Positions 24,505 through 58,700 of a stretch of DNA of 64,000 nt are shown here, one piece after another; the stretch's first letter is position 1; each line of letters opens with the position of its first letter. The DNA comes from Callorhinchus milii (taxonomy: Eukaryota), in the NCBI RefSeq assembly GCF_018977255.1, contig NW_024704742.1, forward strand, positions 135,720,001 to 135,784,000, in the 5' to 3' direction. The position numbers were made by a program, and so were the translations under genes. Below the pieces are notes generated by a model. It was not told where the DNA came from, ran no database searches, and saw only the letters and a list, made by a program, of their open reading frames with translations.

Positions 24505-27500
24505 AAACATAAGAACATAAGAATTAGGAGCAGGAGTAGGCCATTCGGCCCTTCGTGCCTGCTCCGCCATTCAATAAGATCATGGCTGATCTTCTCACCT
24601 AACTCTGATTACCTGCCCTATCTCCATATCCCCTAATCCCTCTATTTTTTAAGAATCTATCAGTCTCAGCCTTGAAAATGTTCAAGGACTGAGCACCTAC
24701 AGCCTTCTGGGGTAATGAATTCCATAAGTTCATTACCCTCTGAGTGAAGAAATGTTTCCTCAACTCTGTTCTAAAAGGCTGACCCTTAATTTTAAGACTG
24801 TGACCCCTAGTTATAGATTCTCCTACCGGGGAAACAGTCCCTCTGTGTCTACTTTATCAGCCCTTTAAGAATCTTATAAGTTTCAATAAGATCCCCCTAA
24901 TTCTTCTGTACTCTAGAGAATACAGCCCTAGTTTATTCAGCCTATCCTCATAGGTCAGTCCCCTCATCCCAGGAACTAACCGAGTGAATCTACGCTGCAC
25001 CCCCTCGAGGGCAAGTATGTCCTTTTTTAAATAAGGAGACCAAAACTGCACACAATACTCTCGGTGCGGTCTCACCAAAGCCCTATACAGTTGCAGCAAG
25101 ACTTCCCTACTCTTATATTCTAAACCTTTCGAAATGAACGCTAACATGCCGTTCGCCTTCTTAGTTGCTGCTGCACCTGCAAACTAACTTTTTGGGACTG
25201 GTGTACAAGGACACCCAAATCCCTTTGAATACTAACTCTATCTAACTTCTCCCCTTCCAGAAAATAATCTGTTCTTTTATTCTTGCTACCTAGGTGAATA
25301 ATTTCACACTTGCTAACATTGAATTCCATCTGCCACCTACTTGCCCACTCCCCGAGCCTATCTATATCTTGTTGCAATCTTTTTGCATCATCCTGAGAGC
25401 TCACTCTGCTACCTAGTTTAGTATCATCCGCGAATTTAGACACATTACATTCAATGTCCTCGTCCAGATCATTGATGTAAATGGTAAATAGCTGAGGCCC
25501 AAGCACTGATCCTTGTGGCACTCCACTAGTTACATCTCCTGCCAATTCGAGAATGATCCGTTTATCACTACTCTCTGCTTTCTACCCGATAGCCACTCTT
25601 CTATCCATGTTAATATTTTCCCATTAATCCCGTGGGCCTTGATCTTGAGTAACAGCCTTTTGTGTGGCACCTTGTCAAATGCCTTCCTAAAATCCAAATA
25701 TACCACATCTACTGGTTCCCCCTTATCCAACCTGCTGGATACATCCTCAAAAAATTCTAAAAGGTTAGTCAAGCATGACTTCCCTTTTGTAAAGCCATGT
25801 TGACTCTGCCTAATCTTTTTATGGTCTTCCAGGTATCCCATAACTACGTCTTTTATTAAGGACTCAAGAATTTTCCCTACAACTGACGTCAAACTAACTG
25901 GTCTATAGTTTTCCCTATTTTCTCTCCCACCCTTCTTAAATAGTGGAGTTACGTTTGCAATCTTCCAATCAATGGGAACTTTTCCAGTATCCACAGACTT
26001 TTGGAAGATTATAGACATGCCATCCACTATCTCAGTAGCCACCTCCTTTAAAACTCTCGGATGCAGGCCATCCGGTCCAGGGGATTTATCGGTTTTAAGA
26101 CCCGACAATTTACCTAGAACCATCTCTTTACTAATGTTAATCTCCCTAAGTTGCTCGCTAACATTGTCTTCTTGGTCCTCTATTTTTGGTATGTTTCCAG
26201 TGTCTTCTACGGTGAAGACTGTAGAAAAATACTTGTTTAATGACTCTGCCATGTCTTTGTCCCCTATTATAATTCCTCCGGTCTCTGCCTGTAATGGACC
26301 CACATTCACCCTCGCTAGCCTTTTCCTCTTTATATATTTGTAAAAACTCTTGGAGTCTGTTTTTATGTTCTTTGCTAGTTTGCCCTCGTAATCTATTTTC
26401 TCCCTCTTGATCAATTTTTTGGTCCTCCTCTGTTGTTCCCTAAAGTTCTCCCAATCCTCGGGTTTACTACTCATCTTCGCTGTTTTATAGGCTTTTTCTT
26501 TTGATTTGATACTTTCCCTAACTGCTCTAGTTAGCCATGGCTGCACCACCTTTCCCATGGCATTCTTATTCCTCAAAGGAATATGTGCTCGTTGGGAATT
26601 TTGCACTATCTCCTTGAATGTCTGCCATTGCTGGTCTACCGTCAAATCTTTAAGTTTAGTCTCCCAGTTTATTCTGGCTAAATCCTCTCTCATACCAGCA
26701 AAGTTGGCTCGATTTAAATTGAAGACTTTTGCTTCAGACTTAACTACTTCCCTCTCTAACTTAACGCTAAATTCCATCATATTATGATCGCTTTGCCCGA
26801 GAGGAGCCTTAAGTTCCAGTTTGCTGATCAGCCCTGTTTCATTACACAAAACAAGGTCTAATATGGCTTGTTCCCTGGTCGGCTCCTCAGCATATTGATC
26901 TAGAAAATTATCTCTAATACATTCTATAAACTCCTCTTCTATGTTACCTTTCCCAATTTGGTTGTCCCAGTCTATGTGCAGGTTAAAATCACCCACAATT
27001 AGTGTCTTTCCTTTGCTACATGCTCCACTAATCTCTTGATTTATACCTTGAGCGATACTTTGACCACTGTTTGGGGGTCTATAAACTACTCCCACTATAG
27101 TTTTCTGCCCCTTGAAGTTACGTATCTCTACCCATACTGACTCTACATCTTGCTTTTCAGATTTAAAATCTTTCCTCTCTACTGTTTTTATCCCATCCTT
27201 TATTAGCAGGGCCACTCCCCCTCCTCGTTTACCACATCGCCTATCTTTCCTATATACCACGTAGCCGGGAATATTCAGTTCCCATCCCTGGTCTCGGTGA
27301 TGGCTACTAGATCATACTGGTTTGTCTCTATTTGTGCAACTAATTCATCTATCTTGTTACGAATGCTTCGTGCATTCAAATATAGTGCCCTTAATTCTGA
27401 CTTCCGGCTATTAACCCTATTCACCAGCACTCAATCACTGTACTTCCTTTCCCTGCTTGACACACTTTGCTCTTCTCCCTTGTTAATCTGCTCTCTTGCT

Positions 27501-29050
27501 TTTGTTGATCTCAAGTTTAACTGTTTTTACCTTTCCCCCCCCCACCCCTTAGCAGTTTAAAGCTCTTTTTACCTCCCTATTTATTTGCGTAGCCAGGACA
27601 TTTGTCTCAGCCCTATTTTAGGTGGAGCCCATTCCTTTGGAAAAGCTCCCATCTTCCCCAATACTCGTGCCAGTGGCCCATGAATTGGAATTCCTGCTCT
27701 CCGCACCACTCTTTTAGCCAGGCATTCAGATCTATGATCTTCTTTTGCCTGTACCAATTAGCTCCTGGCTCAGGTAACAGTCCCGATATCATCACTTTGG
27801 AAGTTCTATTCCTTAGTTTAATTCCCAATTCCCGGAACTCGCTCCTTAACTCGTCCCTACTGGTCCTACCAATGTCATTGGTCCCTATATGTACCATTAC
27901 GATTGGATCCTCTCCCTCATGCCTCAAATTTATCTCCAGCCCGGCGGTGACATCCTTCACCCTGGCCCCAGGAAGACAACAGAGTCTTCTTGTCTCCCTG
28001 CTACGGCTACAGAAAACTGTATCAGTCCTCCCGACTGTCTCATCCCCAATAAGAATTACATTTTTAACCTCCTGCACAGGGGTGTTGGGGTCAGTTTGCC
28101 CGTCTTCCTCGCAGATTTCCTTGTCCACACAGGTTGCCAATATTTCATACCTGTCAGACAAGGCTAAAGTCTGGGATTCTTCAGCCCCTCTCTTTCGGGA
28201 ACGCTTGCCTGCCCGCCTGACTGTCACCTAGTCATGTCCGTCGCTGCTACATTCTTCTTCCTTGGTGACTCAGGAGAGTGTCCAGCTCTAGGATAAAGCT
28301 GTCCAGGAAGTTTTCTCCATCCCTAATGCTGAGCAGCATCTCCACCTGAGACTCCAGCTCAGCTACTCTCAGCTGGAGCTCTCTGATTTCCAGACAGTTG
28401 CAGCAGACAAAGTCACCCGGACTTAAGGCACCCTCCATTGACTCCCACATGTGACAGACCTCGCAGTTTACCTGCCACACCATCTTCACAAATTTTATAT
28501 AGATACAAATATATATAACCTGCCCCCACTTCCCCCTCTGCACCTAATTCCCATTCTCACCAAATTCCCTCACTCTCTGGCCTCGCCTCACTCTGGACAT
28601 AGCTCACTCTCGGCTCGAGTAAGGCTCTCGCAGCTATCTCCTACTTATACTTTCTGGATGCAACCCGTTTCTGATTTGCTCAGCAGTGATTTGGAATTAA
28701 TGCCTAATCAAGTGATTAATTAATAAGTTAATTTAATCAATAATTTACTTGTTATTGGCTTGGCTTAATTGGCTACAGCTGCTCCCTGTAAAGTTACCCC
28801 ACAAGACCAATGTACCAATAGTATCAGCAATTTTAAATAACACAAGACTTAAAACAACTACAACAACTACTACAAGACTTGAATAACAACAACAACAATT
28901 TGGGTTATGTACTCATGATAGCAGTTTTCACGACACTCACAGCAGCAATTCCCACTCTCACCAAATTCCCTCACACTCTGGCCTCGCCTCACTCCGGACG
29001 TAGCTCACTCTGGGCTCTCGGCTCAATTCCGGAAATTCCGGAAAGAAAAA
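24505..29050 (-). mobile_element. Near full-length CR1 LINE, disrupted
   Basis: ORF1 CxxC..CxxC finger and coiled coil (from about 28483), then an SGNH-type esterase (VILIGDET, VHIGTND, GLHL). ORF2 APE and RT in three frames (27260-25530, 25545-25141 with QGSVLGP and FADD, 25147-24857). (CTTATGTT)n 3' tail at about 24505. Confidence 0.95.
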
Positions 29051-31971: not shown

Positions 31972-32061
31972 ATGAATGGAAACGAGAATCACGGCTTTGA
32001 ACACTCGGCAGCGGAAAGGATGTCACCTCCTCAGACACAGAAGGAAAAGGGCTATGGACAG
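31972..32061 (+). CDS. Bicupin coding exon 1 (cytoplasmic N-terminus)
   Basis: Acceptor ttgtcctttcag at 31955; ATG at 31972; MNGNENHGFEHSAAERMSPPQTQKEKGYGQ; phase-0 donor CAG|gtagtt. Confidence 0.7.
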
Positions 32062-35000
32062 GTAGTTCATGTCTGGGAGCTCATTATTTGATAGATAAAC
32101 GACTGAGATCATATTTTGCTCATAGTAATCGTAATAATAATGATGTCCTGATTATCAATAATAACGTCCTGATTATCAATAATAACATCCTGATTATCAA
32201 TAATAATGTCCTGTATCAATAATACTTAGGCTTATTATCAAGGATAATATTGCTATCAGACTCTGCCACTGATAAGCACTCCATACCTGGCATGAAGGGC
32301 GCTATATAAATGCAAGTTGTTGTTGTTATTAATAATACTGTTAACAAGATTATTGGCAAAAGAACCAGAGGGCAAATGAGGAGAAATGTTTTTACGCAGC
32401 AATGATCTGGAATGAACTGCCTGAAAGGGTGGTGTGGAATCAGATTCAATACCAACTTTTGAAAGGGAATTGGATATGTTTTTTGAAAAGGAAAAACATG
32501 CAGAGGTATGGGTTAAGAGTGGGGGTATGGGAATAGTTGGATAGCTCTTTCAAAGAGTTGAATAGTCATAAATGGGCCAAATAGCCTAAATAATTATTAT
32601 TATTATCATTAAATAATAATATTATTAGTAGTATTAATACTAACTAAATAATAACAATATAATTATTATTATAGCCTCCTTCTGTGCTGTAAGATTCTAT
32701 GAACAATAACAATATTGTTATCAATAATATCATCGCCTTTCAACCATCTTGTATTGTATTTTGTATTGTAATTTTGTTATGCCCGAAAGCATTAAATGTC
32801 TCAAGGCAAGTGCTTCTTCATAGGGACTCACTATCACGTATAGTGACTGTGTGTGAACTTGTGGCCAAACACAGAGAGCATTTGAAGCTGGGTAAACGCC
32901 ACATAGACACGAGCGTTTTTACAAACGGCGTATCAAATGTCAGGAATAATGTTATAATTACACAGCTTACTCAAGCGAGAGGTTTGATTCCCTTAGGCAA
33001 GTTCCCTTACTCCATACGCCTCTGTTCACCTAGCAGTAAGTAGGAACCTAGTTGTTAATCGATTGGCGGATCACTTTTCTGAGGGTAATAATTCCTTGAA
33101 AAAAAGAAAATATTGGTCACTCAATCCATGGCTGTTTGTGGGACACTGTGCGCAATTGGCTGCCGTGTTTATCCCTCACAATATACAGTAAATTCACTTT
33201 ACAGTATATTCTGTGAAGCGCTTTGATAAATCTCAACAGTGTGATAATCCATTATATTGAATGGAAGGATTATTATTACAATTATTATGTTGTTAGGGTA
33301 TAAATCACTCTGTAGAGAAAGTTTCTAAGCAGTTGTCAGTGAAGAGTCAGCCCGAGCAAAATACTGCCACGTTCCATAGGAATGTATGTTACTTTTCTTA
33401 ATATGTTTGAACCTCCTAAAATAGCAACTTTTTGTAGGAGGCTGATCTTGTTATAATTACTATTTACAATTATTATAATTTTAACATCATTTCACCCAAT
33501 TCACTTTACAGTATATTCTGTAAAGCGCTTTGAGACGTCTCATTGGTGTGATAAGGCGCTATATCAAATGCAGGATTATTATTATTAATATTTTGTTATT
33601 AATAATGTGAGAATAACAATATTAACTCCATTATTAATAATTAATTATTATTATTAATACAACAACTAGCATTTATGTAGCACCCCTCACTAGTTAGTGT
33701 CACAGAGCAGTTAAATCACTCTGGTAATAATTAGAGTAATACTTAATAATTCTTAATATTAATAATTCATGAATAATCTTACGAACGCTGAGAGTGGTCA
33801 GCGAGTGCCAGCGCTTTGGGATGTCCTCCTGACGTGAAAGGCGGTATACAAACGTAATTTGTTGTTGTTGTTGTTGTTGTTGTTGTTGCTATCGGCCCAA
33901 TAACTGCCCTAATGCATGCTCACTCTCTCCGGATCAGGTGGAGAAAAAGCCCATTTCGCTGCTGAAGATTTTCCTGCTGTGTCTCCTGGCGAGCGTTATC
34001 ACCACCGCGGTGGGAGTTCTGATTCTGGCTCTCGTGTACGTCACCGAGTATCGCCCTCAGTCCTCCTCGCAGCCCCAGATCGAGATCGAGAGCCCCACGG
34101 ATAGCAGGGTGGACATCAAATACAGCTTCCTGAATCACTTGGACAAATCAAAGGTATCGTGTGCTGTGATTGCCTACAAAATAGATGGAGTCCCATAGCG
34201 TAGTGGTTTGAGCGCCCGCCTCACAAACCAGAGGACCCGGGTTTGATTCCCGGGCAAGGTCAAACCTCAGCCAAGTTTCCTTACTCTACACGCCTCTGTT
34301 TATCCAGCAGTAGGTAGGAATCCAATTGCTAGTCGATTGGTGGATTGCTTTCCAAGGGTAATAATCCCTTCCAAAAATATAATTTGGTCGCTCAACTCCA
34401 CGTCTGTTTGTGGCACACTACTGTGCGCAATTTGCTGCCACATTTCGCCCACAGAATACAAGTCAATTCACTTCAAGGAATATTCTGTGAAGCGCTTTGA
34501 GACATCTTGATAACGTGATCAGGTGCTATATCGAATGCTAGGATTATTACTGTTGATATTATTGAGATCAGTGGTTTGAGATCAGAGGTGTTGTGGCTTG
34601 GGACAGCCTACAGACATGTAATTTGTTGCTTCTATAAAAAAAAGTAATTGTTTTTATTATGAAATACACAGCTACTATACTTTAATGTAAATCCTTTGAA
34701 ATGCTTCAACATCTCAATGACGTGCTAAGGCGCTATGTTAATTGCAATCAGTTTTTGGCTCTGCTCCTCTGTGACTGGTATAATCTGTGTCCCGTGGCCC
34801 AGGTTTTCGAGTTGCCCGGTGGAGCCATTCAGTGGGCACGTTACCGCAAAGACACGAGCGCATACGAGGATGAGATATCGATGCAGTTTGGGCGAAGCAT
34901 CAATGAAAGACGGTCTAAAATGACCATCGGCACCCTGCGTATCAAAAGCAATGGTCTCCGGCTCCCACACTGGCATTTTAATGCCAATGAACATGGATAC

Positions 35001-38000
35001 TTGCAACAGGTAAGTCAAATGAAACTGTAAGTCAAATGAAATGGCAACGTCTGTAGCGTATTGTTGGAGCACTCGCCTCGCGAGGCGAGAGGACCTGGGT
35101 TTGATTCCAGGCAGAGGGCGAAACCTTGGGCAAGTTTCCTTACTCCACACACCTCTGTTTACCTCGCAGTGAGTAGGAACTCAGTTGTTAATCGATTGGC
35201 GGATTGCTAATCAGGAGTTATAACCCCTTCAAAGTAATAATAATGATTCGGTCAGTCAAAACACGATTAAGTGAGTCACTGCTGTTGCACGTATGGCTGC
35301 CCATAAAATATACAGTCAATCCGCTTTACAGTATATTGTTTTGAGACGTCTCGATAAGGTTGTATGTCAACTGCAAGGATTAGTATTATATTACTATAAT
35401 TACTGTAAAAAGCTTTGCAACGTCTTAGGCTCCTTATCAAATGCAATGATTGCTATTGTCAGCCTTCCCAACTCCTCCCTCCACAGGCTGCAGATAATCC
35501 AGAACTCTGCAGCCCGTTTCCTCTCCCGCACCAAACTCCGTGACCTCATCTCTCCCACTCTCGCCCGACTCCAATGGCTCCCTATCCTTCAGAGGATCCA
35601 GTTCAAGATCCTGGTCCTCACATACAAAGCCCTCCATGGCCTCACCCCATCCTACCTCTGCGACTCCCTAAACCCCTTACGGACACGCCAGTTCCCTCCA
35701 CTCAGCCGGCTCTGACCTACTCTACGTCCCCCAATCCACCCGCCCCACCATTAGTGGGAGAGCCTTCAGCCACTCTGCCCCCAACTTCTGGAATTCCATC
35801 CCCAAATCACTCCCCTCGCCCCCTCCTTAGCTTCCTACAAGTCCTGCCTCAAGACCCTCCTCTTTGACCATGCCATCGGTCAACCCCCCTTCTCCTCCCC
35901 TCCTTTCTGCCCCCCTGACCCCAGCTCGGGTCTGAAATGCTGTACTCTGGGACGTCCCAACGCGAAAGGCGCTATATAAATGTAATCTTGTTGTTGTTGT
36001 GTTTCCCCCTTAATGAGGTAGGGTCCGTGTCCATTCTAAAGATTTTTTTGGTCAGCCGGGTGTCTGACACATGTGGAAGCCTATCACCGTAGCTTAAGAG
36101 AATCCAAACCAAGCTGAGAATTCCCTGCATCCCACCTACATGTGGAAATCCCAGAGATAGATTGTCGGAATGGAATGCGCTCTCTCCTCCTGGAGGGACA
36201 CATCCTGCTTACCTAATTCTGGAAAGTATTAGGCCCAGGTTGGCAAGAGCCAAGGTTTGGGGACCCCAGAGTGTACCCCTGGAGTCTGACCAGATAAAAC
36301 CACATAGCTTGCCGTTGATAGCGCTGCCTGACAAGATTTCCCACTGCTTCTCCAGCTCGGACCTCCATACCTGTTAGGGCTTTGGCTTGCAAGGTTATCA
36401 GGAGCTGAGTGGGATAACTCCTTGCCCCATTCTAATGACCTAGTTTTTATTGCTGTAGGGCAAGGCATGGATTGGTGTGGTGGATGATGGGACTAACATA
36501 GTGGCGACGTACAACATCACAGCCGGGCAGCTCTTTTTCTTCCCGAAGAACACTCTTCACTGGGTGAAGAACGTGGGTGACGAGGACTGTGTCTTTGTCC
36601 TCTTCTTCACGACCCATGAACAACTGCTGACCTTAGACATCGATGACACATTTTTCTCCACACCTGAGGACATCGCCTCCAGATCATTGAAGGTAACCAG
36701 TGGGGGGGGAGAGAAGGCGGGGGTGGGGGTGGGTGGTTGAGGACAAAACACTGGTCCTGTATTGCCGGCCGTCTGATGAGATATAAAACTGAACATCCCA
36801 TATCTGCTTGTTCAGGTGTATGTTAGAGATCCCATGACATTACCTGAAAAGAGAAAGGAACTTCTCCTGGTGTCCTGGCCAACAATCCCACAGATAATAA
36901 AAAAAAATTGGTCACTTGCTCCCTGGCTGTTTACGGGAAGTTGCAATGTGCAAATTGGGTTAAATATTAATAATAATAATCCTTGCATCCTTGCATAGCG
37001 CCTTATCACGTGTGGCCTTACAAAACACACGGTCATTACAGTTCACAGTAAACTCCTGTGGAGCGCTTTCAGATGGCCTCCCAATACGAAAAGCACTGTG
37101 TCCAAAGAAAGATTTCTTTACACTTCGCTCAGTAGAAAATCACATGGTAAGACGTTACTAGGCGCAGGGTTGTTTAATCTCATCTTTCCTGCACAGCCGG
37201 AAGGAGGAGTCAAGTTCATTAGGAGCTTCTCCAAACAAAAGGAGGACCAAGGGATCAATCTCCCAGCCAACCTGAAGGACCTCGTGACCAACGCCAGTTA
37301 CGTACAGTCGCCGGACACCATCGTGTGGAAATACTTTTACGACCTTCCAGGTAATGGCTTACTTTCAGGATCGTTTCTGAAGATCTTCCTCAGACCCCAA
37401 CGCTGTTAAGCAGCCAGTAACACTGCCCAGCATGAAGGATGCTGAAAATGCAAGTTGCTGAGATACTGAGAGCTTAGATGTGAGCCCACATGAAGATACC
37501 TTAGCGTAGTGGTTAGAGTGCTCGCCTTACAAGTGAGAGGATCCGGGATCGATTCCCGAGTCAAGGCGAAACCTTAAGTAAGTTTCCTTACTCCGCACGC
37601 CTCTGTTTACCGAGCAGTAAGTGGGAACCCGGTTAATAGTCAATAGGCAGATCACTTTCTGGGGAAATAATAAATTCATGATAATAATTTGGTCATTCGC
37701 TCCATTGCTGTTTGTGGAACATTACTGTCGCACATCAGTTGTCTCTATCTCTCACACAAGCAATCCCTCCCCCTCTCTCTCTCTCTTTGTCTGTGTCTCA
37801 TACAGTCTTTCTATCTCTCTGTCTCTCAGACTTTCTCACAACCTCTCTCTCACTCACACATAGTCTCTCTCTTTCTCTCTCTCTCTCTCTCACACATATG
37901 GTCACTCTGTGTGTCTCACTCTCTCTCACGTTCTCTCTCTCTCTCTCTCTCTCCCTCTCTCTGGTATTCGCAGGCTCCACACAGTTTGTGTATCCCGGTG

Positions 38001-38327
38001 GGATTATCCAGTGGGCGAGATACCGGAGCTCGCCCACAAACCTGACAGAGAACGAGAAGATTTACGGTGAATCCGTACACGAGGTACCTTCCCTCAGGGT
38101 CCCCACCCTCACCTATACCCCCCACCGCAGCCCCCAGCGCCGGCCTCATCTCTCCCATCTTCTCCTGCCTCACTCCCTTGCGTCAATGGCAAGTTTTGCG
38201 GTCCGAGTTGGTGAGACTCCAGCAGTTACCCCAACACACACCCTGGGCTCCCCCCAAGCCTTGGCTCTTGCCAACCTGTGCCTAATACTCTCCGGAATTA
38301 GGTAAGCAGGATGCCTCCCCCCCCCAG

Positions 38328-38358
<31 letters not shown>

Positions 38359-41300
38359 TCATTCCAACAATCTATCTCTGGGATTTCCATGTGTAGGTGG
38401 GATGCAGGGAATTCTCAGTTGGGTTTGGATGCTCTTAAGCAACGGTGATGGGTTTGTGTCAGTCACCCGGCTGACCAAAAAAAACTCCCCTTCTCTTACA
38501 CCAGCCCCCCCCCCCCCACCCCAGCTCAGGTGGCCAGCCAGCTATATCATAGACGTGTTCCTGCTTCATGTCCCCCACCCTGCCCACCCCAACCATTGGT
38601 GGTCAGTCCTTCAGATTTTCTGCCCCAGCCCTCTGGAACTCCATCGCACGCTTGCCCCCTCCCTTGGCTCTTTCAAGGTCTATCTCAAGACTTTCTTCTT
38701 TGATCGTGCTTTTTCTGCCACCTTCGAACCCCACCCCCTACCGCCAACCCTATTGATTCCAACCCCCAATTTGGGTGCAAGTCTCTAACTGTCCAGCGCC
38801 TTGGGACGTCCTTACGACATGAACAGCAAGCACAACAAATTATGTTTGTGTAGTGCCTTTCAAGTCGGGAGGACCTCCCAAGGTGCTGGACAGCTAAGGA
38901 TGTGCACCCGAGCTTGGGGTTGGGGTAGAAGTAATTTTGCTGTTATTAAATAATAATAATTTGGTCCCTCAATCCCCGACTGTTTGTGGGACGCTGCTGT
39001 GCGCAATTGGCTTCCGCGTTTCGCCCACAAACACACAATCAATTCACTTTACAGTATATTCTGTGAAGCGCTTTGAGACGTCTCAGTGATGTGATCAGGC
39101 GCTGTATCACATACAAGGATTATTATTGTTGCTGTTGTTGTTTGCCATTGGGGATTTGCTTGTGCTTGAGTTGGTGACCAAACCCCGACCTTCTCTCCAC
39201 AGCACGCAGACACCCTGACAATGGGCACGCTACGGATTTACAGCAACGGCCTGCGGCAGCCGCACTTCCACTTCAACGCTAACGAGATGGGCTACGTGGT
39301 CAGTGGCTGTGGACAGGTAACTCTCCACATTTCCGGACACTATTCCCATTATTCCCAATCAACTCCGACAATCATGAACTCTCCGACGTCCCCAGTCGCT
39401 CTCTGGCATCTAAGCAATTCTTTTTGGGTCGGCCGGGTGTCTGACACACGCGGAAACCCAGCACTGTGTTTAAGGGTCTTCAAACCAAACATCCCACCTA
39501 CACATGGAAATCCCAGAGATACATTGCTGGAATACAATGCCCTCTTTCTTCCTGGAGGGACTCATTCTGCTTATCCAATTCCGGAAAGTGTTAGGCGCAG
39601 GTTGGCAAAAGCCAAGGATTGGGGACCCCAGAGTGTGGGTTGCGGTAACTGCTGGAGTCTAACCAGCTAAAACCGTATGTCTTGCCATTGATCTGGGGAG
39701 ATTGGAGTCCTGTAGCTTAGTGGTTAGAGTACTCGCCTCGCAAACGAGAGGAACTGGGTTCGATTCCCGGCAGGGCGAAATGTTGGGCAAGTAAAACCCA
39801 ATACTAATAATAATTTGGTCACTCAATCTAAGACCGTTTGTGGGATGCTGCTGTGCACAATTGGCTACCTTCAACCGTGCCTTCAACCGTTTCTCTTCAA
39901 CCGTGCCTTCAGCTCCCCTCTCGACTCTCTAACCCCTCCTCGCTCCCTCCCTTCCCTCCCCTCACCCTGACCATTTCCCCCCTGCTCGGGTCCTGACCCA
40001 ACTGTCCAGCACCTTGGGACGTCCTCCCGACATGAAAGGCGCTCTATAAATGAAATCTTGTTGTTGTAGTTGTAGTTGTACCGCATTTCGCCCACAAAAT
40101 ACAGTCGATTCACTTTACAGTATATCCCGTGAAGCGCTTTGAGGCTTCTCGAAGAAGTGATAAGGCGCTTGTATCAAAAACAACGATTATTATGATTATT
40201 ATTGTTGGCCAGGACACCGGGGGATACTCAGTCTTTCTGGTTACACTCAGAACCTTCCCAAACCCCCCACAGTGCAAGTGAGGTCAGGGTTAGACCATTT
40301 CTGCACCTCACTCCACTCACCTTCGAGAAACCACTCTGCCTTCTCACCGATGCTATAAAGCCCTCCTGTAGTATGGCCACCATAACTACACGCACTACTC
40401 TAACTATTGTTTAATCAATATTCTAACATCAATTTGGCATAATAATAATCGTTTAATATAGCGCCTTATCACGTCGTCAAGATGACTCAAAGCGCTTTAC
40501 AGGATACATTGTAAAGTAAATTGACTGTATATTTTGCGAGCCAAATTCATCAGCCAGTTTGCACACAGCAGTGTCCCACAAACACTCATGGAGTGAGTGA
40601 CCAAATTTTGTTTGGGGGAATTATTGGGCAAGACATTGGGAGAAAGAAACCTTGGGCAAACTTCCTTACTCCTTACTCCACACGCCTCTGTTTTCCTAGC
40701 AGTACGTAGGCTAGGAACCCGCTTGTTAGTCGATCGGCAGGTCATAATCTTTCCGGGGGGTAATAATCCCTTCAAAAAAATAGGTCACTCAATCAACGAC
40801 TGTTTGTATGACACTGCTGTGTACAATTGGCTGTCGCTTCTCGCATGAAAAATACAGTCAATTCACTGTATAGTATATTCTGTGAAGCGCTTTGAGACTA
40901 CCGTATGATGTGCTATATCAAACACAAGGATTATTATTGTGGATAAGCTGCCGCATTTTGCCCACAAAAACCTACAGTCACCACCCTTTAACGATAAACC
41001 TGGTGAAACACTTTGCGACATCGCCCTGCCATTAAAGACGTTGTATCAAAAGCAAACATAAATAACTAACTGCCTTCTGAATAATACTATGCATCCGGCC
41101 TTGGCAGCTACTTGTGTAATGAACTTGCGCCTCATTATCTGTCTGAATGGAGCCAGTCTTCCAATCCTAATCAATTCCTCTTTGAACAATCTTGACACTT
41201 TGCCATCTGGACAAGATTAGTTAACTGTAGCGATTTGTAAGATTACCCAAGCCAATAAAGGAAATAGCTCCTGCGTATATACTTCCTTGCTGAATATTTA

Positions 41301-42500
41301 CCCCCCACCCCCATTCTACGTCAGGATTCCCTGCTCCCAGTGATTGATCTTTCCTTTCAGGTCCTACCAATGAGCCAGGCCGGGCTGTGCTATCATCAGC
41401 AGTGCCCTGGATTACTGTGGACTCACCTGGCTCAGGAACTGGACCAGAGACCGTCACAGAGGGCTTGTTCGATTCAGACATTCCTTTGCTAAACATCACC
41501 TGTTGCCCTGAGTTGATGATGAGACCTCCTTTTTTAAGGGTTCAGCCTCTTCACCCAGCCCCCATCCACCCGTTTCTCTCCCCTCCCATCCGAATACTCT
41601 GACCTTATTTCAGGCTCTCCTTTCTAGGTGGGAATAATTGGGACCTCAGTCACGGATTTCCAGATAAACGTCGGTGATGTCTTCTTCTTCCCCATTGGGA
41701 CCCAGCATTACATCCAGAGCTCGTGTACCGAGGATCTCCTGCTGATTCTCGGCTTCACCACTGGAGACCAGGTGAGGACTCCACACTCCTGGTGAGACCA
41801 GAGGATGTGGCGGAGGGCTGAGGTTGGGTGGAGGTCGCAAAGGGTGTGGTGGAGAGGAGGGCGGAGGGTGGAGAAGGCTTGAGGACGCAGAGGATGGAGG
41901 TAGTGAAGGATTAACACATGGCTCTGTTTACCTAGCAGTAAGTAGGAATACGGTTTTTAGTCACTTTCCTCGGGTAATAATCCCCCTCCAAAAAACGAAA
42001 ACAATTGGTCACTCCCTCCATGACTGCTGTGTGCAATTGGCTGCCTCGTTTCGCCCATAAAATACACAGTCACTCCACTTTACAGTATGAGTGAGGCACT
42101 TTGAGGCGTCTCAACGATTAAATGCAAGGATTATTATTACTGTATTATTATTAACGAGCACAGCTTTCAAAAGGCAATTTCAGGAGAAGGAATCAAGAAG
42201 TATTTCTTTATCAGGAGAGTAACTAAAGGGTCACCAGGAAGGATAGGTTGAGGGACAAGTGGTTGAAGGAAGAGTGGTTGAGAGAACAGTGATGGATGAG
42301 CTCAAAATGGGTCTTCTTCTCCCGAAGAGTCTTTTTCACCCAAAGCTCTCTTGTCTCTCTTGTAGCTGGAGACCTTGGACATGGATGATTATTTCAATGC
42401 GGCAGCTGATCACATCCTAGCCCAGGCCTTCCACAAGCCCCAGAACGAATTCCAGAAGATCCCAGTCTTCAAGGATGACCAGGCTGTGAATATTCCTTGA
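31972..42500 (+). CDS. Membrane-anchored bicupin: DYNAP/CLLAC-like anchor plus two oxalate decarboxylase/germin-like cupin domains; 9 coding exons, 467 aa
   Basis: join(31972..32061,33938..34153,34803..35009,36459..36692,37197..37350,37974..38083,39203..39316,41628..41771,42366..42500). All introns GT-AG, phases match, 1404 nt with no internal stop. Two sets of RxPHxHFNANE and FFFP...H motifs. Confidence 0.9.
32133..32224. repeat. 21-bp tandem repeat, about 4 copies
   Basis: (TCCTGATTATCAATAATAAYR)n in the intron after bicupin coding exon 1. Confidence 0.85.
33938..34153 (+). CDS. Bicupin coding exon 2 (CLLAC-like transmembrane anchor)
   Basis: cag|VEKKPISLLKIFLLCLLASVITTAVGVLILALVY...HLDKSK|gtatcg; 216 nt. 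Confidence 0.9.
34803..35009 (+). CDS. Bicupin coding exon 3 (cupin 1, motif 1)
   Basis: VFELPGGAIQWARYR...NGLRLPHWHFNANEHGYLQQ|gtaagt; 207 nt. Confidence 0.95.
35440..36000 (+). mobile_element. L2 3' fragment (intronic)
   Basis: [18 protein letters not shown]...[16 protein letters not shown]; (TTG)n tail. Confidence 0.9.
36043..36320 (-). repeat. Unclassified ~300-bp interspersed repeat, copy 1 (others 38183-38484, 39420-39691, 49838-50092)
   Basis: Shared blocks T(n)GGTCAGCCGGGTGTCTGACAC, CCCACCTACAxxTGGAAATCCCAGAGATA and GGTTGGCAAGAGCCAAGG. Confidence 0.85.
36459..36692 (+). CDS. Bicupin coding exon 4 (cupin 1, motif 2)
   Basis: tag|GKAWIGVVDDG...AGQLFFFPKNTLHWVKNVG...SRSLK|gtaacc; 234 nt. 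Confidence 0.95.
37197..37350 (+). CDS. Bicupin coding exon 5 (inter-domain linker)
   Basis: cag|PEGGVKFIRSF...KEDQGINLP...WKYFYDLP G|gtaatg; 154 nt, phase 1. Confidence 0.9.
37740..37962. repeat. (CT)n-rich microsatellite forming the polypyrimidine tract of exon 6
   Basis: Direct inspection. Confidence 0.9.
37974..38083 (+). CDS. Bicupin coding exon 6 (start of cupin 2)
   Basis: cag|GSTQFVYPGGIIQWARYR...ESVHE|gtacct; repeats PGGxIQWARYR of exon 3; 110 nt. Confidence 0.93.
38183..38484 (+). repeat. Unclassified ~300-bp repeat, copy 2 (opposite orientation, ends in an A run)
   Basis: Ends CACCCGGCTGACCAAAAAAAA; reverse complement of copy 1. Confidence 0.85.
39203..39316 (+). CDS. Bicupin coding exon 7 (cupin 2, motif 1)
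   Basis: cag|HADTLTMGTLRIYSNGLRQPHFHFNANEMGYVVSGCGQ|gtaact; 114 nt. Confidence 0.95.
39420..39691 (-). repeat. Unclassified ~300-bp repeat, copy 3
   Basis: Same blocks as copy 1. Confidence 0.85.
41628..41771 (+). CDS. Bicupin coding exon 8 (cupin 2, motif 2); not in the ORF track
   Basis: tttctag|VGIIGTSVTDFQINVGDVFFFPIGTQHYIQSSCTEDLLLILGFTTGDQ|gtgagg; 144 nt. Confidence 0.93.
42366..42500 (+). CDS. Bicupin final coding exon 9; not in the ORF track
   Basis: ctcttgtag|LETLDMDDYFNAAADHILAQAFHKPQNEFQKIPVFKDDQAVNIP*; parallels LLTLDIDDTF...EDQGINLP of the first domain. Confidence 0.92.
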   Translation: METLDMDDYFNAAADHILAQAFHKPQNEFQKIPVFKDDQAVNIP

Positions 42501-42942
42501 ACCCGGAATAGCTCAGCAACCGCTCATTGTTCAATGGAAAGTGTGAATGAACATGTAAAGTGTGAACGTCTCTGGCTGGGGTGTGGCCGGGGGGAGGTGG
42601 GTAAAGGAAAAAACACTAGTTCAATGGCTTAGCGGATAAACACAACCCATGATGCGTTACTGAGCAGGACACACATAAACCATCGGGGGTTTGATCCATT
42701 AAATGGATACCCACTCCAGCTCACTGAGCCAGCATGGAACCTCAGTGTCCTGGTTGACTCTCAACTGTCCTTTAAACCCCACATCCCTGCCATGACCCGT
42801 TCCGCCTTCCCCCACAACGTTGCCGGCCTCTGCCACTGCCTCTCCCCTCGGGCCACCACCCTGATGAATACTTTTATTCAGATTCCATTACTCTAGTTCT
42901 CTGCTTGCTAACTCTTCCCTCCACCAGCTGAAGATCATTCAT

Positions 42943-53398: not shown

Positions 53399-54106
53399 CA
53401 CCTCCCAAATCTGAGACTCATGGTGAAATCTTGCCGTTAAAAAAAAGACAAGAAACAGAAATAATGCTTCCATTTGATATCACGTCTTAACAGCTCTTCG
53501 AGACGTCTCAAAACACTTCACAGAATATATTGTAAATACAGTATACACAAAATAACACAAAACACAGAGTGGATTGACTGTGTATTTTGTTGGTGAAACG
53601 CAGCAGCCAACTGCGCACAGCAGTGTCCCACAAACTGTCGTGGATTCAGTGACCAATATTTTTTTGGGGGCAGGAATTATTACCCCCAGAACGCGAGGTA
53701 TTTGTCGAGGTATGTTGCTACTTACTGCGAGGCAATCAGAGGCAAGTGGAGTAAGGAAACTCGAAGGTATCCCAGGAATCAAACCCGGTTCCTCTCGCTT
53801 GTGAGGCAAGTGCACTAAGCACAAAGCTACGGGGCATTTGGTCCAAGGGCATCCTTCAGTCAATAGACATCAGGATAAATACACCCACTGCCTTTGGTAA
53901 ATTTGCCCTTCAGCGTATGGCTGAAGGAATTTCCACCCGATTGTACTTAAAGTGTGTCCGTCTGCCTCAGGTGACAGCATTCTCTACTCTCGAGGCAGAA
54001 CGGTGTGGGTTCGAGCCTCGTATCAGGAATTGGAGCTCACAGTCCAGGATGAAACAAAGCAGTACTGGAGGCGAACTGTATTATCAGAGATGCCGTCCTC
54101 TTCACT

Positions 54107-54855
54107 ATCTCTGGGTCTCAGTCTCTCTCTCTCACTCTCTGGGTCTCAGTCGCGCTCTCACTCTCTGGGTCTCAGTCGCGCTCTCACTCTCAGGGTCTCA
54201 GTCTCTCTCTCTCACTCTCTGGGTCTCAGTCTCTCTCTCTCTCTCACTCTCTGGGTCTCAGTCGTGCTCTCACTCTCTGGGTCTCAGTCGCGCTCTCACT
54301 CTCAGGGTCTCAGTCTCTCTCTCTCACTCTCTGGGTCTCAGTCTCTCTCACACTCTCAGGGTCTCAGTCTCTCTCTCTCACTCTCTGGGTCTCAGTCTCT
54401 CTCTCTCACTCTCTGGTCTCAGTCTCTCTCTCAGCTCTCAGGGTCTCAGTCTCTCTCTCTCACTCTCTGGGTCTCAGTCTCTCTCTCTCACTCTCTGGGT
54501 CTCAGTCTCTCTCTCACACTCTCAGGGTCTCAGTCTCTCTCTCTCACTCTCTGGGTCTCAGTCTCTCTCTCTCACTCTCTGGGTCTCAGTCTCTCTTTCT
54601 CACTCTCTGGGTCTCAGTCTCTCTCTCTCACTCTCTGGATCTCAGTCTCTCTCTCTCACTCTCTGGGTCTCAGTCTCTCTCTCTCTCACTCTCAGGGTCT
54701 CAGTCTCTCTCTCACACTCTCAGGGTCTCAGTCTCTCTCTCTCACTCTCTGGATCTCAGTCTCTCTCTCTCACTCTCAGGGTCTCAGTCTCTCTCTCTCT
54801 CACTCTCAGGGTCTCAGTCTCTCTCTCACTCTCAGGGTCTCACTCTCAGAGTCTC
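54107..54855. repeat. Pyrimidine-rich minisatellite, unit about 24-30 bp (GGGTCTCAGTCTCTCTCTCTCACTCTCT/A)
   Basis: More than 25 imperfect copies. Confidence 0.95.
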
Positions 54856-54883
54856 ATTGAATCTCATTCACTTTCTGACACAA

Positions 54884-54995
54884 ACTCACTTCCGCCTCTG
54901 GAGCAGTTGTAACATTCAGACCGCACTGCGCACGCGCCGTCTCTTCATTGGCAACACTGCAGTTGTCGCGGCCGATCAGCGGCTTTCCCTGAGTG
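54884..54995. promoter_or_regulatory. Putative (bidirectional) core promoter and C18orf54 non-coding first exon
   Basis: CpG-rich unique island. Minus-strand donor AA|GTGAGT at 54890/54889; ETS-like GCGGAAG; NRF1-like TGCGCACGCGC at 54927-54937; ATTGG/GGCAAC (CCAAT and RFX half-site). Confidence 0.55.
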
Positions 54996-56380
54996 ACCCC
55001 AACCCCCAACTCACCCCAACCCTCACCCCACACCACCTGCCCCCAACCCCAAACCCCACCTCACCCCAACCCCCACCTCTCCCACCCAACCCCACCCCAC
55101 CTCTCCCCAACCCCAACCCCACCCCCACCCCCCCAACCCCCACCCCCCCCCACCTCTCCCCAACCCCAACCCCACCCCCACCTCTCCCCAACCCCCACCC
55201 CACCCCCACCTCTCCCCAACCCCACCCCACCCCCACCTCTCCCCAACCCCACCCCACCCCCACCTCTCCCCAACCCCCACCCCACCCCCACCTCTCCCCA
55301 ACCCCAACCCCACCCCCACCTCTCCCCAACCCCAACCCCACCCCAACTCACCCAACCCCACCCCCACCCCTACCTCTCCCTAACCCCAACCCCCACCTCT
55401 CCCTAACCCCAACCCCCACCTGCCCCAACCCCAACCCCCAACTCACCCCAACCCCAACCCCACCTCTCCCCAACCCCACCCCCACCTCTCCCTAACCCCC
55501 ACCCCACCTCTCCCTAACCCCCACCCCACCTGCCCCCAACCCCACCCCCACCTCTCCCTAACCCCACCCCCACCCCCACCTCTCCCCAACCCCAACCCCA
55601 CCTCTCCCCAACCCCAACCCCACCCCCACCTCTCCCCAACCCCAACCCCACCCCCACCTCTCCCCAACCCCAACCCCACCCCCACCTCTCCCCAACCGCA
55701 ACCCCCACCTCTCCCCAACCCCACCTGCCCCCCAACCCCAACCCCCACCTGCTCCCCAACCCAAACCCCCAACTGCTCCCCAACCCCCACCTCTCCCCAA
55801 CCTCTCCCCAACCCCAAACCCCACCTGCTCCCCAACCCAAACCCCCAACTGCTCCCCAACCCCCACCTCTCCCCCACCTCTCCCCAACCGCAACCCCCAC
55901 CTCTCCCCAACCCAAACCCCCACCTCTCCCCAACCGCAACCCCCACCTCTCCCCAACCCCAACCCCCACCTCTCCCCAACCCCCCACCTCTCCCCAACCC
56001 CAACCCCCCACCTCTCCCCAACCCCAACCCCCCACCTCTCCCCAACCCAATCCCCCACCTCTCCCCAACCCAAACCCCACCTCTACCCAACCGCAACCCC
56101 CACCTCTCCCCAACCCCAACCCCCCACCTCTCCCCAACCCCCACCTCTCCCCAACCTCTCCCCAACCGCAACCCCCACCCGCTCCCCAACCCCACCTGCT
56201 CCCCAACCCCACCCGCTCCCCAACCCCACCTGCTCACCAACCCCAACCCCACCTGCTCCCCAACCCCAAACTAGCTGCTCCCCAACCTCACCTGCTCCCC
56301 ATCCCCCAACCTCACCTGCTCCCCCCCCACTGGCTCCCCAACCTCACCTGCTCCCCAACCTCACCCCCCCCCCACCCCAC
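54996..56380. repeat. C-rich satellite (CCCCAA/CCCCACCTCT units) with G-quadruplex potential on the minus strand
   Basis: About 1.4 kb of C3-5 runs separated by 1-5 nt. Confidence 0.95.
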
Positions 56381-56887
56381 CCTTGATACACAGCCCCAAT
56401 CCAGCTTCGTGTCAACCTAATCTGATCCCATCCCAATCCAAGCCCCAACCCTATACTGACCCCATTTTAACCCTAGCTCCATTCTGATCCCAGCCCCACC
56501 TCTACCCTGATACCAACCCCAGTCTCTTGGACACATGCAGTCACACATGTTCCAGCACTGGGTCACACACAAACTCACAAGGTGGGGTCCGCACATTGAT
56601 ATAAGCTCAACAAAGTACTGGACAGTTTTCTGGCCAGAGTAGCTGATGATGGAAGAAAAAGGCGGAGTGCTGTTTGGTTTTATTGTAATCAGTCCTTATA
56701 TTTTGCTGTATACATATCCACTTCCTTCTCTGGTGCCGGGCCTGACACCACGGAGGCCATTCAAGGAGTCTTCTCCTCCAAGAGGCACCCTCCCCACCAT
56801 CCAATTCAATGTCATCTGGGCTCAATTGGTAGTTCTCGCCGAGTCAGAAGATTGTTGGCTCAAGAACTCTGTGACACAACCCTGAGA

Positions 56888-57864: not shown

Positions 57865-58700
57865 ACAGCCTCCGACTCCGTTCCCGGTGCTCGCTGCTCT
57901 CGGTGAGCCTCCTCGCGCGAGGGGTGCGGTGTCACCGAATGCAAGTTGTCGTTGTCGCTGATCCGACCGCACAGAAGCCACATCGGTGTCGTCGGTGGTG
58001 ACGACGGTGGTGGGAACCTTTCCCGGGAATCGGCCCCAGTGCTGATGGTTGTCCACCTCTCGGAGCAGACAAAGGCTCTACGCTGCGCCGTCTCCGGGAG
58101 CCGATGAGCTGCTTTCCCATGTGGGGAGCGTAGACCTTCAGCCACCGGCAGAGACGCCCCCCGGCCACGGGGATCACAGCCGCTCCCCCTCCCCTCCCCT
58201 CCCTCGGCGCAGCCCAGTCACACACACACACACACACACCCCCCTACAGCCAGGCGCCGGCAACAGAGAGAGGGGCGATCGGTCTGACCAGCCATGCAGA
58301 TGTGGAGGGCGGATTTCTGCAGGGATGGAGTGATGGGCCAGCGCAAGGCGAGGTTCACGGAGAACGGGCTGACGGCGCTGACTTACGCTGTCATGGCCCG
58401 CCGACACATCCTCTTCTCCACCGGGGTCATGCCGGGCCAGGTGCAGGAGAGGCTGCACGGCTGGCGGGAGGTGGTCCGGATGGTGAACGCCGAGGAGAGG
58501 ACCACCCGCACTTGGGAGGAGTGCAGGAAGAAAGTGTACGACCTCAGGAAGAGCGCCAGGGTGAGTGCCTCCCGGAGCCACACGCACATCGATAGGAACA
58601 ATAGAGAGCGTCGGTTCTGTCGCGCCTTTCCCCGTCGGGATGTGTCAACGCGTCTCGCAGGTAATCAGCCTGGCTCGGTCGTTTGCGTTCTCTTCTGGGG
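57865..58700. promoter_or_regulatory. CpG island
   Basis: Dense CpG and high GC relative to the flanks; contains the Myb/SANT-like exon. Confidence 0.65.
58294..58560 (+). CDS. Myb/SANT-like DNA-binding domain exon (NAIF1/MSANTD/Harbinger-Myb type); downstream exons not found in the window
   Basis: RKARFTENGLTALTYAVMARRHILF...WREVVRMVNA...RTWEECRKKVYDLRKSAR|gtgagt. Start at 58294 or 58333; possible acceptor at 58249. Confidence 0.8.

Follow-up and report, generated by a model that had tools for sequence, protein, structure and literature searches.

Do vertebrates carry an oxalate-degrading enzyme of their own? They are held to have none, and the question is raised by a gene of the chimaera Callorhinchus milii within 64,000 nucleotides of contig NW_024704742.1 (assembly GCF_018977255.1, positions 135,720,001 to 135,784,000 of the forward strand; hereafter the window, in whose own numbering positions are given unless marked otherwise). 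There, the original prediction had placed at 31972..42500 a membrane-anchored protein with two cupin domains (a bicupin), resembling the oxalate decarboxylase OxdC and the germins and possibly acting on oxalate. We found the gene to be real and intact, and the comparisons below identify it as CUPIN1 of the chimaera, either the single ortholog or one of a co-ortholog pair.

An intact chimaera CUPIN1 gene

The nine spliced exons give 1404 nt encoding 467 amino acids (aa) with one terminal stop, and GT..AG borders are present at 8/8 introns, whose phases are 0,0,0,0,1,0,0,0. The product equals RefSeq protein P0003 (LOC103185496) except at residue 290, Thr here and Ala in P0003 (sequences compared by eye, consistent with tblastn). 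On the plus strand, exon 1 (31972..32061, aa 1-30) encodes a polar, predicted cytosolic N-terminus with the family start motif N-x-x-F-E, of which N6, F9 and E10 are almost invariant in the homolog alignment, and exon 2 (33938..34153, aa 31-102) encodes the CLLAC motif and transmembrane helix (33950-34039, aa 35-64; CLLAC E 6.8e-13, AlphaFold helix at 38-67), a stalk and the start of cupin 1. Cupin 1 continues through exon 3 (34803..35009, aa 103-171), with motif 1 and R155, H158, W159, H160 and E165 (34959-34991), and exon 4 (36459..36692, aa 172-249), with motif 2 and H205, the conserved N-glycosylation sequon N190 and a short lid-like loop, T223-H224-E225-Q226. A helical arm, a linker and the sequon N281 occupy exon 5 (37197..37350, aa 250-301). 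Cupin 2 starts in exon 6 (37974..38083, aa 301-337) and has its motif 1, with R355, H358, F359, H360 and E365 (39254-39286), in exon 7 (39203..39316, aa 338-375) and its motif 2, with H402, in exon 8 (41628..41771, aa 376-423). Exon 9 (42366..42500, aa 424-467 and the stop) encodes a C-terminal helical arm, and candidate poly(A) signals follow at 42698 and 43085. Pfam finds Cupin_1 twice (E 1.3e-36) and CLLAC at 35-64 (E 1e-11; 44.6 bits against a cut-off of 25), and the two cupin halves are 44-45% identical to each other. Splicing and the match to P0003 thus confirm the in-phase frame of the original prediction; the repeat motifs that it quoted from both halves are all present, the domains that it expected were all found by Pfam, and its single hydrophobic span appears as a 19-residue Kyte–Doolittle peak of 2.7 at aa 41.

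It is barely credible that the gene is an incorrectly spliced prediction, a relic without expression or a contaminant of bacterial origin. Its closest non-vertebrate relatives are mainly microbial, as contamination would have it, but the eight canonical introns carry vertebrate repeats, exon lengths are common to a C. milii paralog, the neighbours are LAS2-like and RAB27B exons, and homologs occur near full length on assembled contigs of 1.7-3.6 kb, as expected of spliced mRNA. The last observation suggests spliced mRNA in other species, and contamination was rejected as the source. No RNA data were listed as matching 33900-35050, and four presumed RNA runs over 33900-37400 covered repeats, with no exon–exon joint among the listed joints and almost no exon cover; being of unspecified tissue, these runs are uninformative either way.

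The protein is 55-72% identical to 77 vertebrate homologs, and homologs at 52-73% extend across rays, sturgeon, paddlefish, gar, bowfin, coelacanth, amphibians, reptiles, birds, platypus, marsupials and placentals, including lemur. The cat CUPIN1 protein, which bears the name cupin superfamily member 1, matches at 63% identity over 99%, and that of pig at 62%. The name CUPIN1 was given by VGNC in horse, dog, cat and cow, and according to the accessible part of PMC8574622 these genes are orthologous to the human pseudogene CUPIN1P (HGNC:54490). CUPIN1 is kept by most jawed vertebrates, from chimaera to lemur, and is a pseudogene in human. While the original prediction described a gene of a cartilaginous fish, and the chimaera does possess it, the gene is not confined there, as many mammals carry an intact copy. 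Among the named matches listed (87 rows; 120 of 171; 42 rows) none is from a teleost, a jawless fish or an invertebrate chordate, which is weak evidence of absence.

Many CUPIN1 orthologs are already labelled 'oxalate decarboxylase OxdC-like' in RefSeq, and these names, together with the CUPIN1 and CUPIN1P catalogue entries, bear out the earlier suspicion that automated annotation may list homologs. The labels 'legumin J-like', 'GL25', 'ATF-4' and 'LAS2 isoform' on orthologs were rejected as best-hit or fused-model names. Because the gene is already named and its OxdC likeness is already in automated annotation, this is no gene discovery: CUPIN1 is not new as a gene, and what is new as a system is a membrane-anchored, separately doubled vertebrate bicupin. 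A full-text search, with most subscription papers outside its reach, found no functional, structural or evolutionary study of CUPIN1 and returned mentions of its naming only, in line with the statement that no biochemical characterisation was known.

A second C. milii paralog (P0289, LOC103184852; loci L001, L002, L004-L007) lies on the minus strand at G000:C1:135695929-135705493, head to head with the gene, ~46.5 kb from its start codon and ~14.5 kb before the window. The paralog is 52% identical, has all eight metal ligands and a weaker CLLAC match, and 6/7 of its cupin exons have the same length as in C. milii CUPIN1. For the pair, the ratio of nonsynonymous to synonymous substitution rates (dN/dS) is ~0.13 over 365 codons (bootstrap upper bound 0.22, with dS near saturation). 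Combined with the 55-72% identity retained from chimaera to mammals, this ratio shows lasting selection. Compared with RefSeq P0289, exon 2 of the paralog is out of frame by one base in this assembly; an assembly error or an allelic difference may account for this. Frogs hold several CUPIN1 copies (P0001, P0002 and P0074 in Pelodytes, P0008 and P0012 in Bombina), some of them modelled with extra cupin repeats.

Metal sites and membrane anchor

Conservation was scored in an alignment of 78 of the 87 database hits, with nine fused or short models left out. The eight metal ligands, H158, H160, E165 and H205 in cupin 1 and H358, H360, E365 and H402 in cupin 2, are complete in 66/78 rows; 10 of the other 12 rows miss ligands via gaps in partial models and 2 by a single substitution. 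The ligands align on H95/H97/E101/H140 and H273/H275/E280/H319 of OxdC (numbering from the accessible text of PMC3765361 and PMC11433825), and the two complete sites, three His and one Glu in each cupin, are shared with OxdC, in support of the metalloenzyme of the original prediction. The active-site Arg is conserved as well, R155 being present in 73/73 filled rows and R355 in 71/74. R155 aligns on OxdC R92, described in PMC11433825 as a second-shell residue; the matching Arg mutants of a fungal oxidase were reported to be inactive, but they had also lost Mn (PMC3585803, in part). Each cupin would bind one divalent metal, most likely Mn, with its three His and single Glu ligand. Overall, we consider CUPIN1 likely to be an active metal (probably Mn) type II ectoenzyme.

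The topology follows from the anchor. C. milii CUPIN1 has one hydrophobic helix with lysines before it, and human dynAP, which has the same kind of CLLAC anchor, is described in PMC8329785 and PMC4540312 as a type II protein that resides in the Golgi and plasma membrane and whose outer tail is rich in Thr/Ser. As the anchor is shared with DYNAP, CUPIN1 is very probably a type II single-pass protein, with the N-terminus in the cytosol and the 380-residue bicupin in the Golgi lumen or at the cell surface, and the anchor supports the earlier proposal to that effect. The sequons do lie only after the transmembrane span, as had been noted, but this is weak evidence, because ~400 of the 467 residues lie there; N190 is conserved in 76/78 rows, N281 in 71/78 and N323 in 1/78.

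Human DYNAP (C18orf26) resembles CUPIN1 in its CLLAC/transmembrane anchor and type II topology and differs in its short Thr/Ser-rich ectodomain without a cupin. The anchor of a DYNAP-like segment in the mammalian fused model P0080 is almost identical to that of C. milii CUPIN1. The amphibian paralogs P0091, P0093, P0095, P0098, P0101 and P0103 have lost several metal ligands, and two of these, P0093 and P0095, retain CLLAC and bear Thr-rich tails. Judged by domain content, the ligand-less amphibian paralogs look like intermediates between CUPIN1 and the cupin-less DYNAP.

Relation to oxalate decarboxylases and candidate functions

The AlphaFold model, built from 78 sequences, has a mean predicted local distance difference test score (pLDDT) of 75 and a predicted template modelling score of 0.69. 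The barrels mostly reach pLDDT 80-97, and residues 234-267 and much of 427-467 stay under ~55; these low-confidence helical arms may be oligomer contacts, through which CUPIN1 probably oligomerises as OxdC and germin do. In a Foldseek search the first 17 rows were all MncA or OxdC entries (E 2.8e-25 to 2.4e-23), the best 14 of the 32 matches in a PDB sequence search were OxdC or MncA, and VIA-align gave Z of 29.0-29.4 to OxdC/MncA with ~300 residues aligned and root-mean-square deviations of 3.3-5.8. HHalign against an OxdC-like alignment reached a probability of 99.8 over 328 columns. With B. subtilis OxdC (TIGR03404) and Synechocystis MncA, CUPIN1 shares the bicupin fold, the two 3His-1Glu sites, both Arg and the Trp96 equivalent; it differs in its membrane anchor and glycosylation, a lid two residues shorter, Phe for Trp274, a score below the family cut-off and the separate origin of its halves. 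The proposed identity as an OxdC/germin-like bicupin therefore stands as far as the best sequence and fold matches are concerned, but not as membership of the OxdC subfamily.

A number of observations weigh against an oxalate enzyme of the OxdC kind. Identity to OxdC is just 16-20%, and 11S seed globulins reach Z 28.9 where OxdC reaches 29.4 in VIA-align. With the globulins near-equal, the fold shows the OxdC/seed-globulin bicupin type and no more, and the fold check proposed earlier, while returning OxdC/MncA as best matches, does not discriminate them from seed globulins; it is the metal ligands, not the fold, that separate OxdC-like proteins from these non-enzymatic ones. On TIGR03404, C. 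milii CUPIN1 scores 141.8 bits against a cut-off of 254.2 (paralog 94, cat 120) and is therefore not classed as OxdC. Scored against each other the two halves reach 124 bits, while no half of 52 non-vertebrate bicupins gives either of them more than 80 bits, the vertebrate halves form one group in quick trees of 120 and 53 rows (Shimodaira–Hasegawa-like approximate likelihood ratio test, SH-aLRT, 99), and a clade of vertebrate and OxdC-like N-halves was rejected in the 53-row tree (approximately unbiased test, p=8.3e-5), although the grouping of the halves could in part reflect long-branch pull or gene conversion from one to the other. Judged by these alignments and trees, CUPIN1 is outside the OxdC subfamily and its tandem halves arose separately; as they do not derive from the domains of OxdC, the substrate is not transferable by orthology.

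The active site gives points on both sides. The loop after motif 2 falls two residues short of the OxdC lid, and an OxdC 162-163 deletion mutant narrowly leads the PDB sequence matches. Family position 226 falls on OxdC Glu162 in both MAFFT and HHalign, but with the shorter lid this register depends on gap placement, pocket and lid having been compared by alignment only. Among rows matching the loop pattern, position 226 is Glu in 143/146, the exceptions being both chimaera paralogs (Gln) and one frog; a SENST-type full-length lid with Glu162 is absent from C. milii CUPIN1, which has Gln in the register. In the accessible parts of PMC6850040 and PMC3585803, Glu162 is the proton donor of OxdC and lid changes switch between decarboxylase and oxidase, but a Glu added to the fungal oxidase did not bring decarboxylase activity. 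The Trp96 equivalent W159 is kept, and position 359 (OxdC Trp274) is Phe in 73/74 rows of the alignment, so that the hole-hopping Trp96/Trp274 pair of OxdC is not complete. Sturgeon, paddlefish and gar carry Tyr at this position. In OxdC, the W274F change lowers efficiency to ~20% per Mn, whereas Tyr in its place is a rescue (PMC8254039). His224, which is invariant, and a long insertion ahead of motif 1 both lack a counterpart in OxdC. Calcium oxalate stones form in cats and dogs despite an intact CUPIN1. OxdC is reported to have its optimum near pH 4 and to keep ~7% at pH 7.2 (PMC6850040, in part), and for MncA the folding compartment can determine the metal (PMC3765361).

Given these opposing signals, oxalate would be the single most likely substrate of CUPIN1, an assignment that we make tentatively and place just below even. 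The original suggestion of a metalloenzyme possibly acting on oxalate gains from the two intact metal sites, while oxalate itself is still a guess, with Gln at the Glu162 register here. In such an enzyme, the conserved Arg beside the metal would hold a small carboxylate, which Mn/O2 radical chemistry would cleave, chiefly at the N-terminal site. With a lid Glu, orthologs could yield formate and CO2 from oxalate, whereas the chimaera protein, with the Glu-Gln lid pattern of an oxidase, would more likely yield H2O2 and CO2. The bicupin oxalate oxidase of Ceriporiopsis and plant germin are secreted-pathway Mn cupins, as CUPIN1 probably is; the former pairs an acid at lid position 161 with a non-acidic residue at 162, as in the chimaera Glu-Gln, but its lid is of OxdC length, neither protein is membrane-anchored and germin is a monocupin.

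A serious possibility, if a slightly lesser one, is an active ecto-metalloenzyme of other function: it might be a superoxide dismutase or an oxidase that makes H2O2, in the manner of germin-like proteins, or might act on another small acid as a lyase or dioxygenase. The separate internal duplication, with halves grouped loosely with secreted monocupins and germin-like repeats (SH-aLRT 88, the inside of the group not being resolved), would fit such a function, as would the TIGR03404 score, His224 and the pre-motif-1 insertion, and the Phe in place of Trp274. On the other hand, each half has, like OxdC, an Arg three positions ahead of its first His, which the germin-like repeats of P0178 lack, the lid-register Glu is retained in the family, and the top structural matches of known activity all act on oxalate. 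CUPIN1 is not itself of the germin type (a single cupin with a germin box), having two cupins with RxPH[WF]H and a germin match of E 7e-6. We regard as improbable a non-catalytic surface protein that binds metal or a small ligand and serves as receptor, scavenger or adhesion molecule via its cytosolic tail. Seed globulins equal OxdC in fold score, DYNAP signals with the same anchor and without a cupin, and amphibian paralogs persist after ligand loss; yet in the main ortholog line, unlike in storage cupins, all ligands, both Arg and the residues of the loop have hardly changed between chimaera and mammals.

Where the halves came from was approached through their relatives. The quick trees resolved no sister group, and the two halves have no intron position in common, consistent with introns having been acquired once the doubling had taken place. 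Searching 1.84 billion representatives yielded 506 hits, of which 24 had E <1e-30, and the first match outside the family had E 6e-29 and 36% local identity. Of 150 representatives listed from these hits, the 30 that were looked up comprised 12 vertebrate, 2 bacterial, 1 fungal (Basidiobolus) and 1 mite sequence and 14 without an organism name. Atlas neighbours, which are leads only, are mainly bacterial clusters, with some fungal ones and a single chordate cluster, the CUPIN1 family itself. Transfer from a microbe appears plausible, about as probable as its contrary, and stays at that because no donor was resolved. A search of the supplements to the IRBP transfer paper (PMC10120077) gave no cupin, DYNAP, oxalate or C18orf26 entry. 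Among the relatives, P0115 of the mite Oppiella nova is a classical OxdC (614 bits on TIGR03404) on a 5 kb contig, a transfer or contamination unrelated to CUPIN1, and P0109, P0110, P0120, P0121, P0123, P0125 and P0129 are microbial lidless bicupins below the OxdC cut-off with a common His-Glu loop, some with leaders resembling those of twin-arginine translocation.

The most far-reaching scenario is that early jawed vertebrates acquired a microbial cupin, doubled it and added introns and an anchor, and so gained their own surface oxalate-degrading enzyme, which most lineages keep and humans, mice and possibly teleosts have lost, DYNAP being a cupin-less duplicate and the ligand-less amphibian paralogs intermediates. 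Taken as a whole we hold it to be unlikely. If true, the human loss of CUPIN1 would parallel that of uricase, and the family would also supply an origin for DYNAP. With CUPIN1 intact in cat, dog, cow, pig and lemur and dead in human, native oxalate degradation in vertebrates becomes a testable question; microbial OxdC is under development against hyperoxaluria despite its acid optimum, according to the accessible text of PMC6850040. If the substrate is not oxalate, CUPIN1 would still count as an orphan metalloenzyme of the vertebrate cell surface, and its loss from the two species studied most would explain why it was overlooked.

Neighbours and other features of the window

C. milii CUPIN1 sits between LAS2-like and RAB27B exons, as expected for CUPIN1. 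On the minus strand, three collinear LAS2/C18orf54-like exons lie at 53356-53309, 51774-51679 and 50719-50570 (E 2e-5, 5e-5 and 0.013), with no match to Pfam LAS2 on the candidate exon or the genome, and the first coding exon of RAB27B lies at C1:135652555-135652680 (L009:156-281), ~99 kb upstream of the CUPIN1 start codon. The human gene order, which we take to be C18orf54/LAS2 - CUPIN1P - RAB27B, is backed by mammalian fused models in which the partner of the cupins is LAS2 (P0036) or a second CLLAC whose tail is 62% Thr/Ser (P0080). While these models imply the same strand, the LAS2-like exons are tail to tail with C. milii CUPIN1, so that a local inversion is likely. Compared with CUPIN1 of horse, dog, cat and cow, the chimaera gene has the same domain order, ~63% identity to the cat protein and the same neighbours; it differs in Gln226 in place of the Glu of almost all other CUPIN1, in the second paralog and in being inverted relative to LAS2 as placed by the mammalian read-through models.

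Around the gene, ~56% of the 64-kb window is repeated within itself. A long fragment of a long interspersed element occupies 25141-28227 on the minus strand, in which a 593-aa endonuclease/reverse-transcriptase-like frame is open and another open reading frame lies upstream (recognised by eye), and 53900-56420 consists of long simple tandem repeats, CT-rich and then C-rich, with strong GC skew. On the plus strand, 58288-58590 is a Myb/SANT-like DNA-binding open reading frame (Pfam Myb_DNA-bind_5, E 1.5e-8), which we presume may come from a Harbinger-type transposon.

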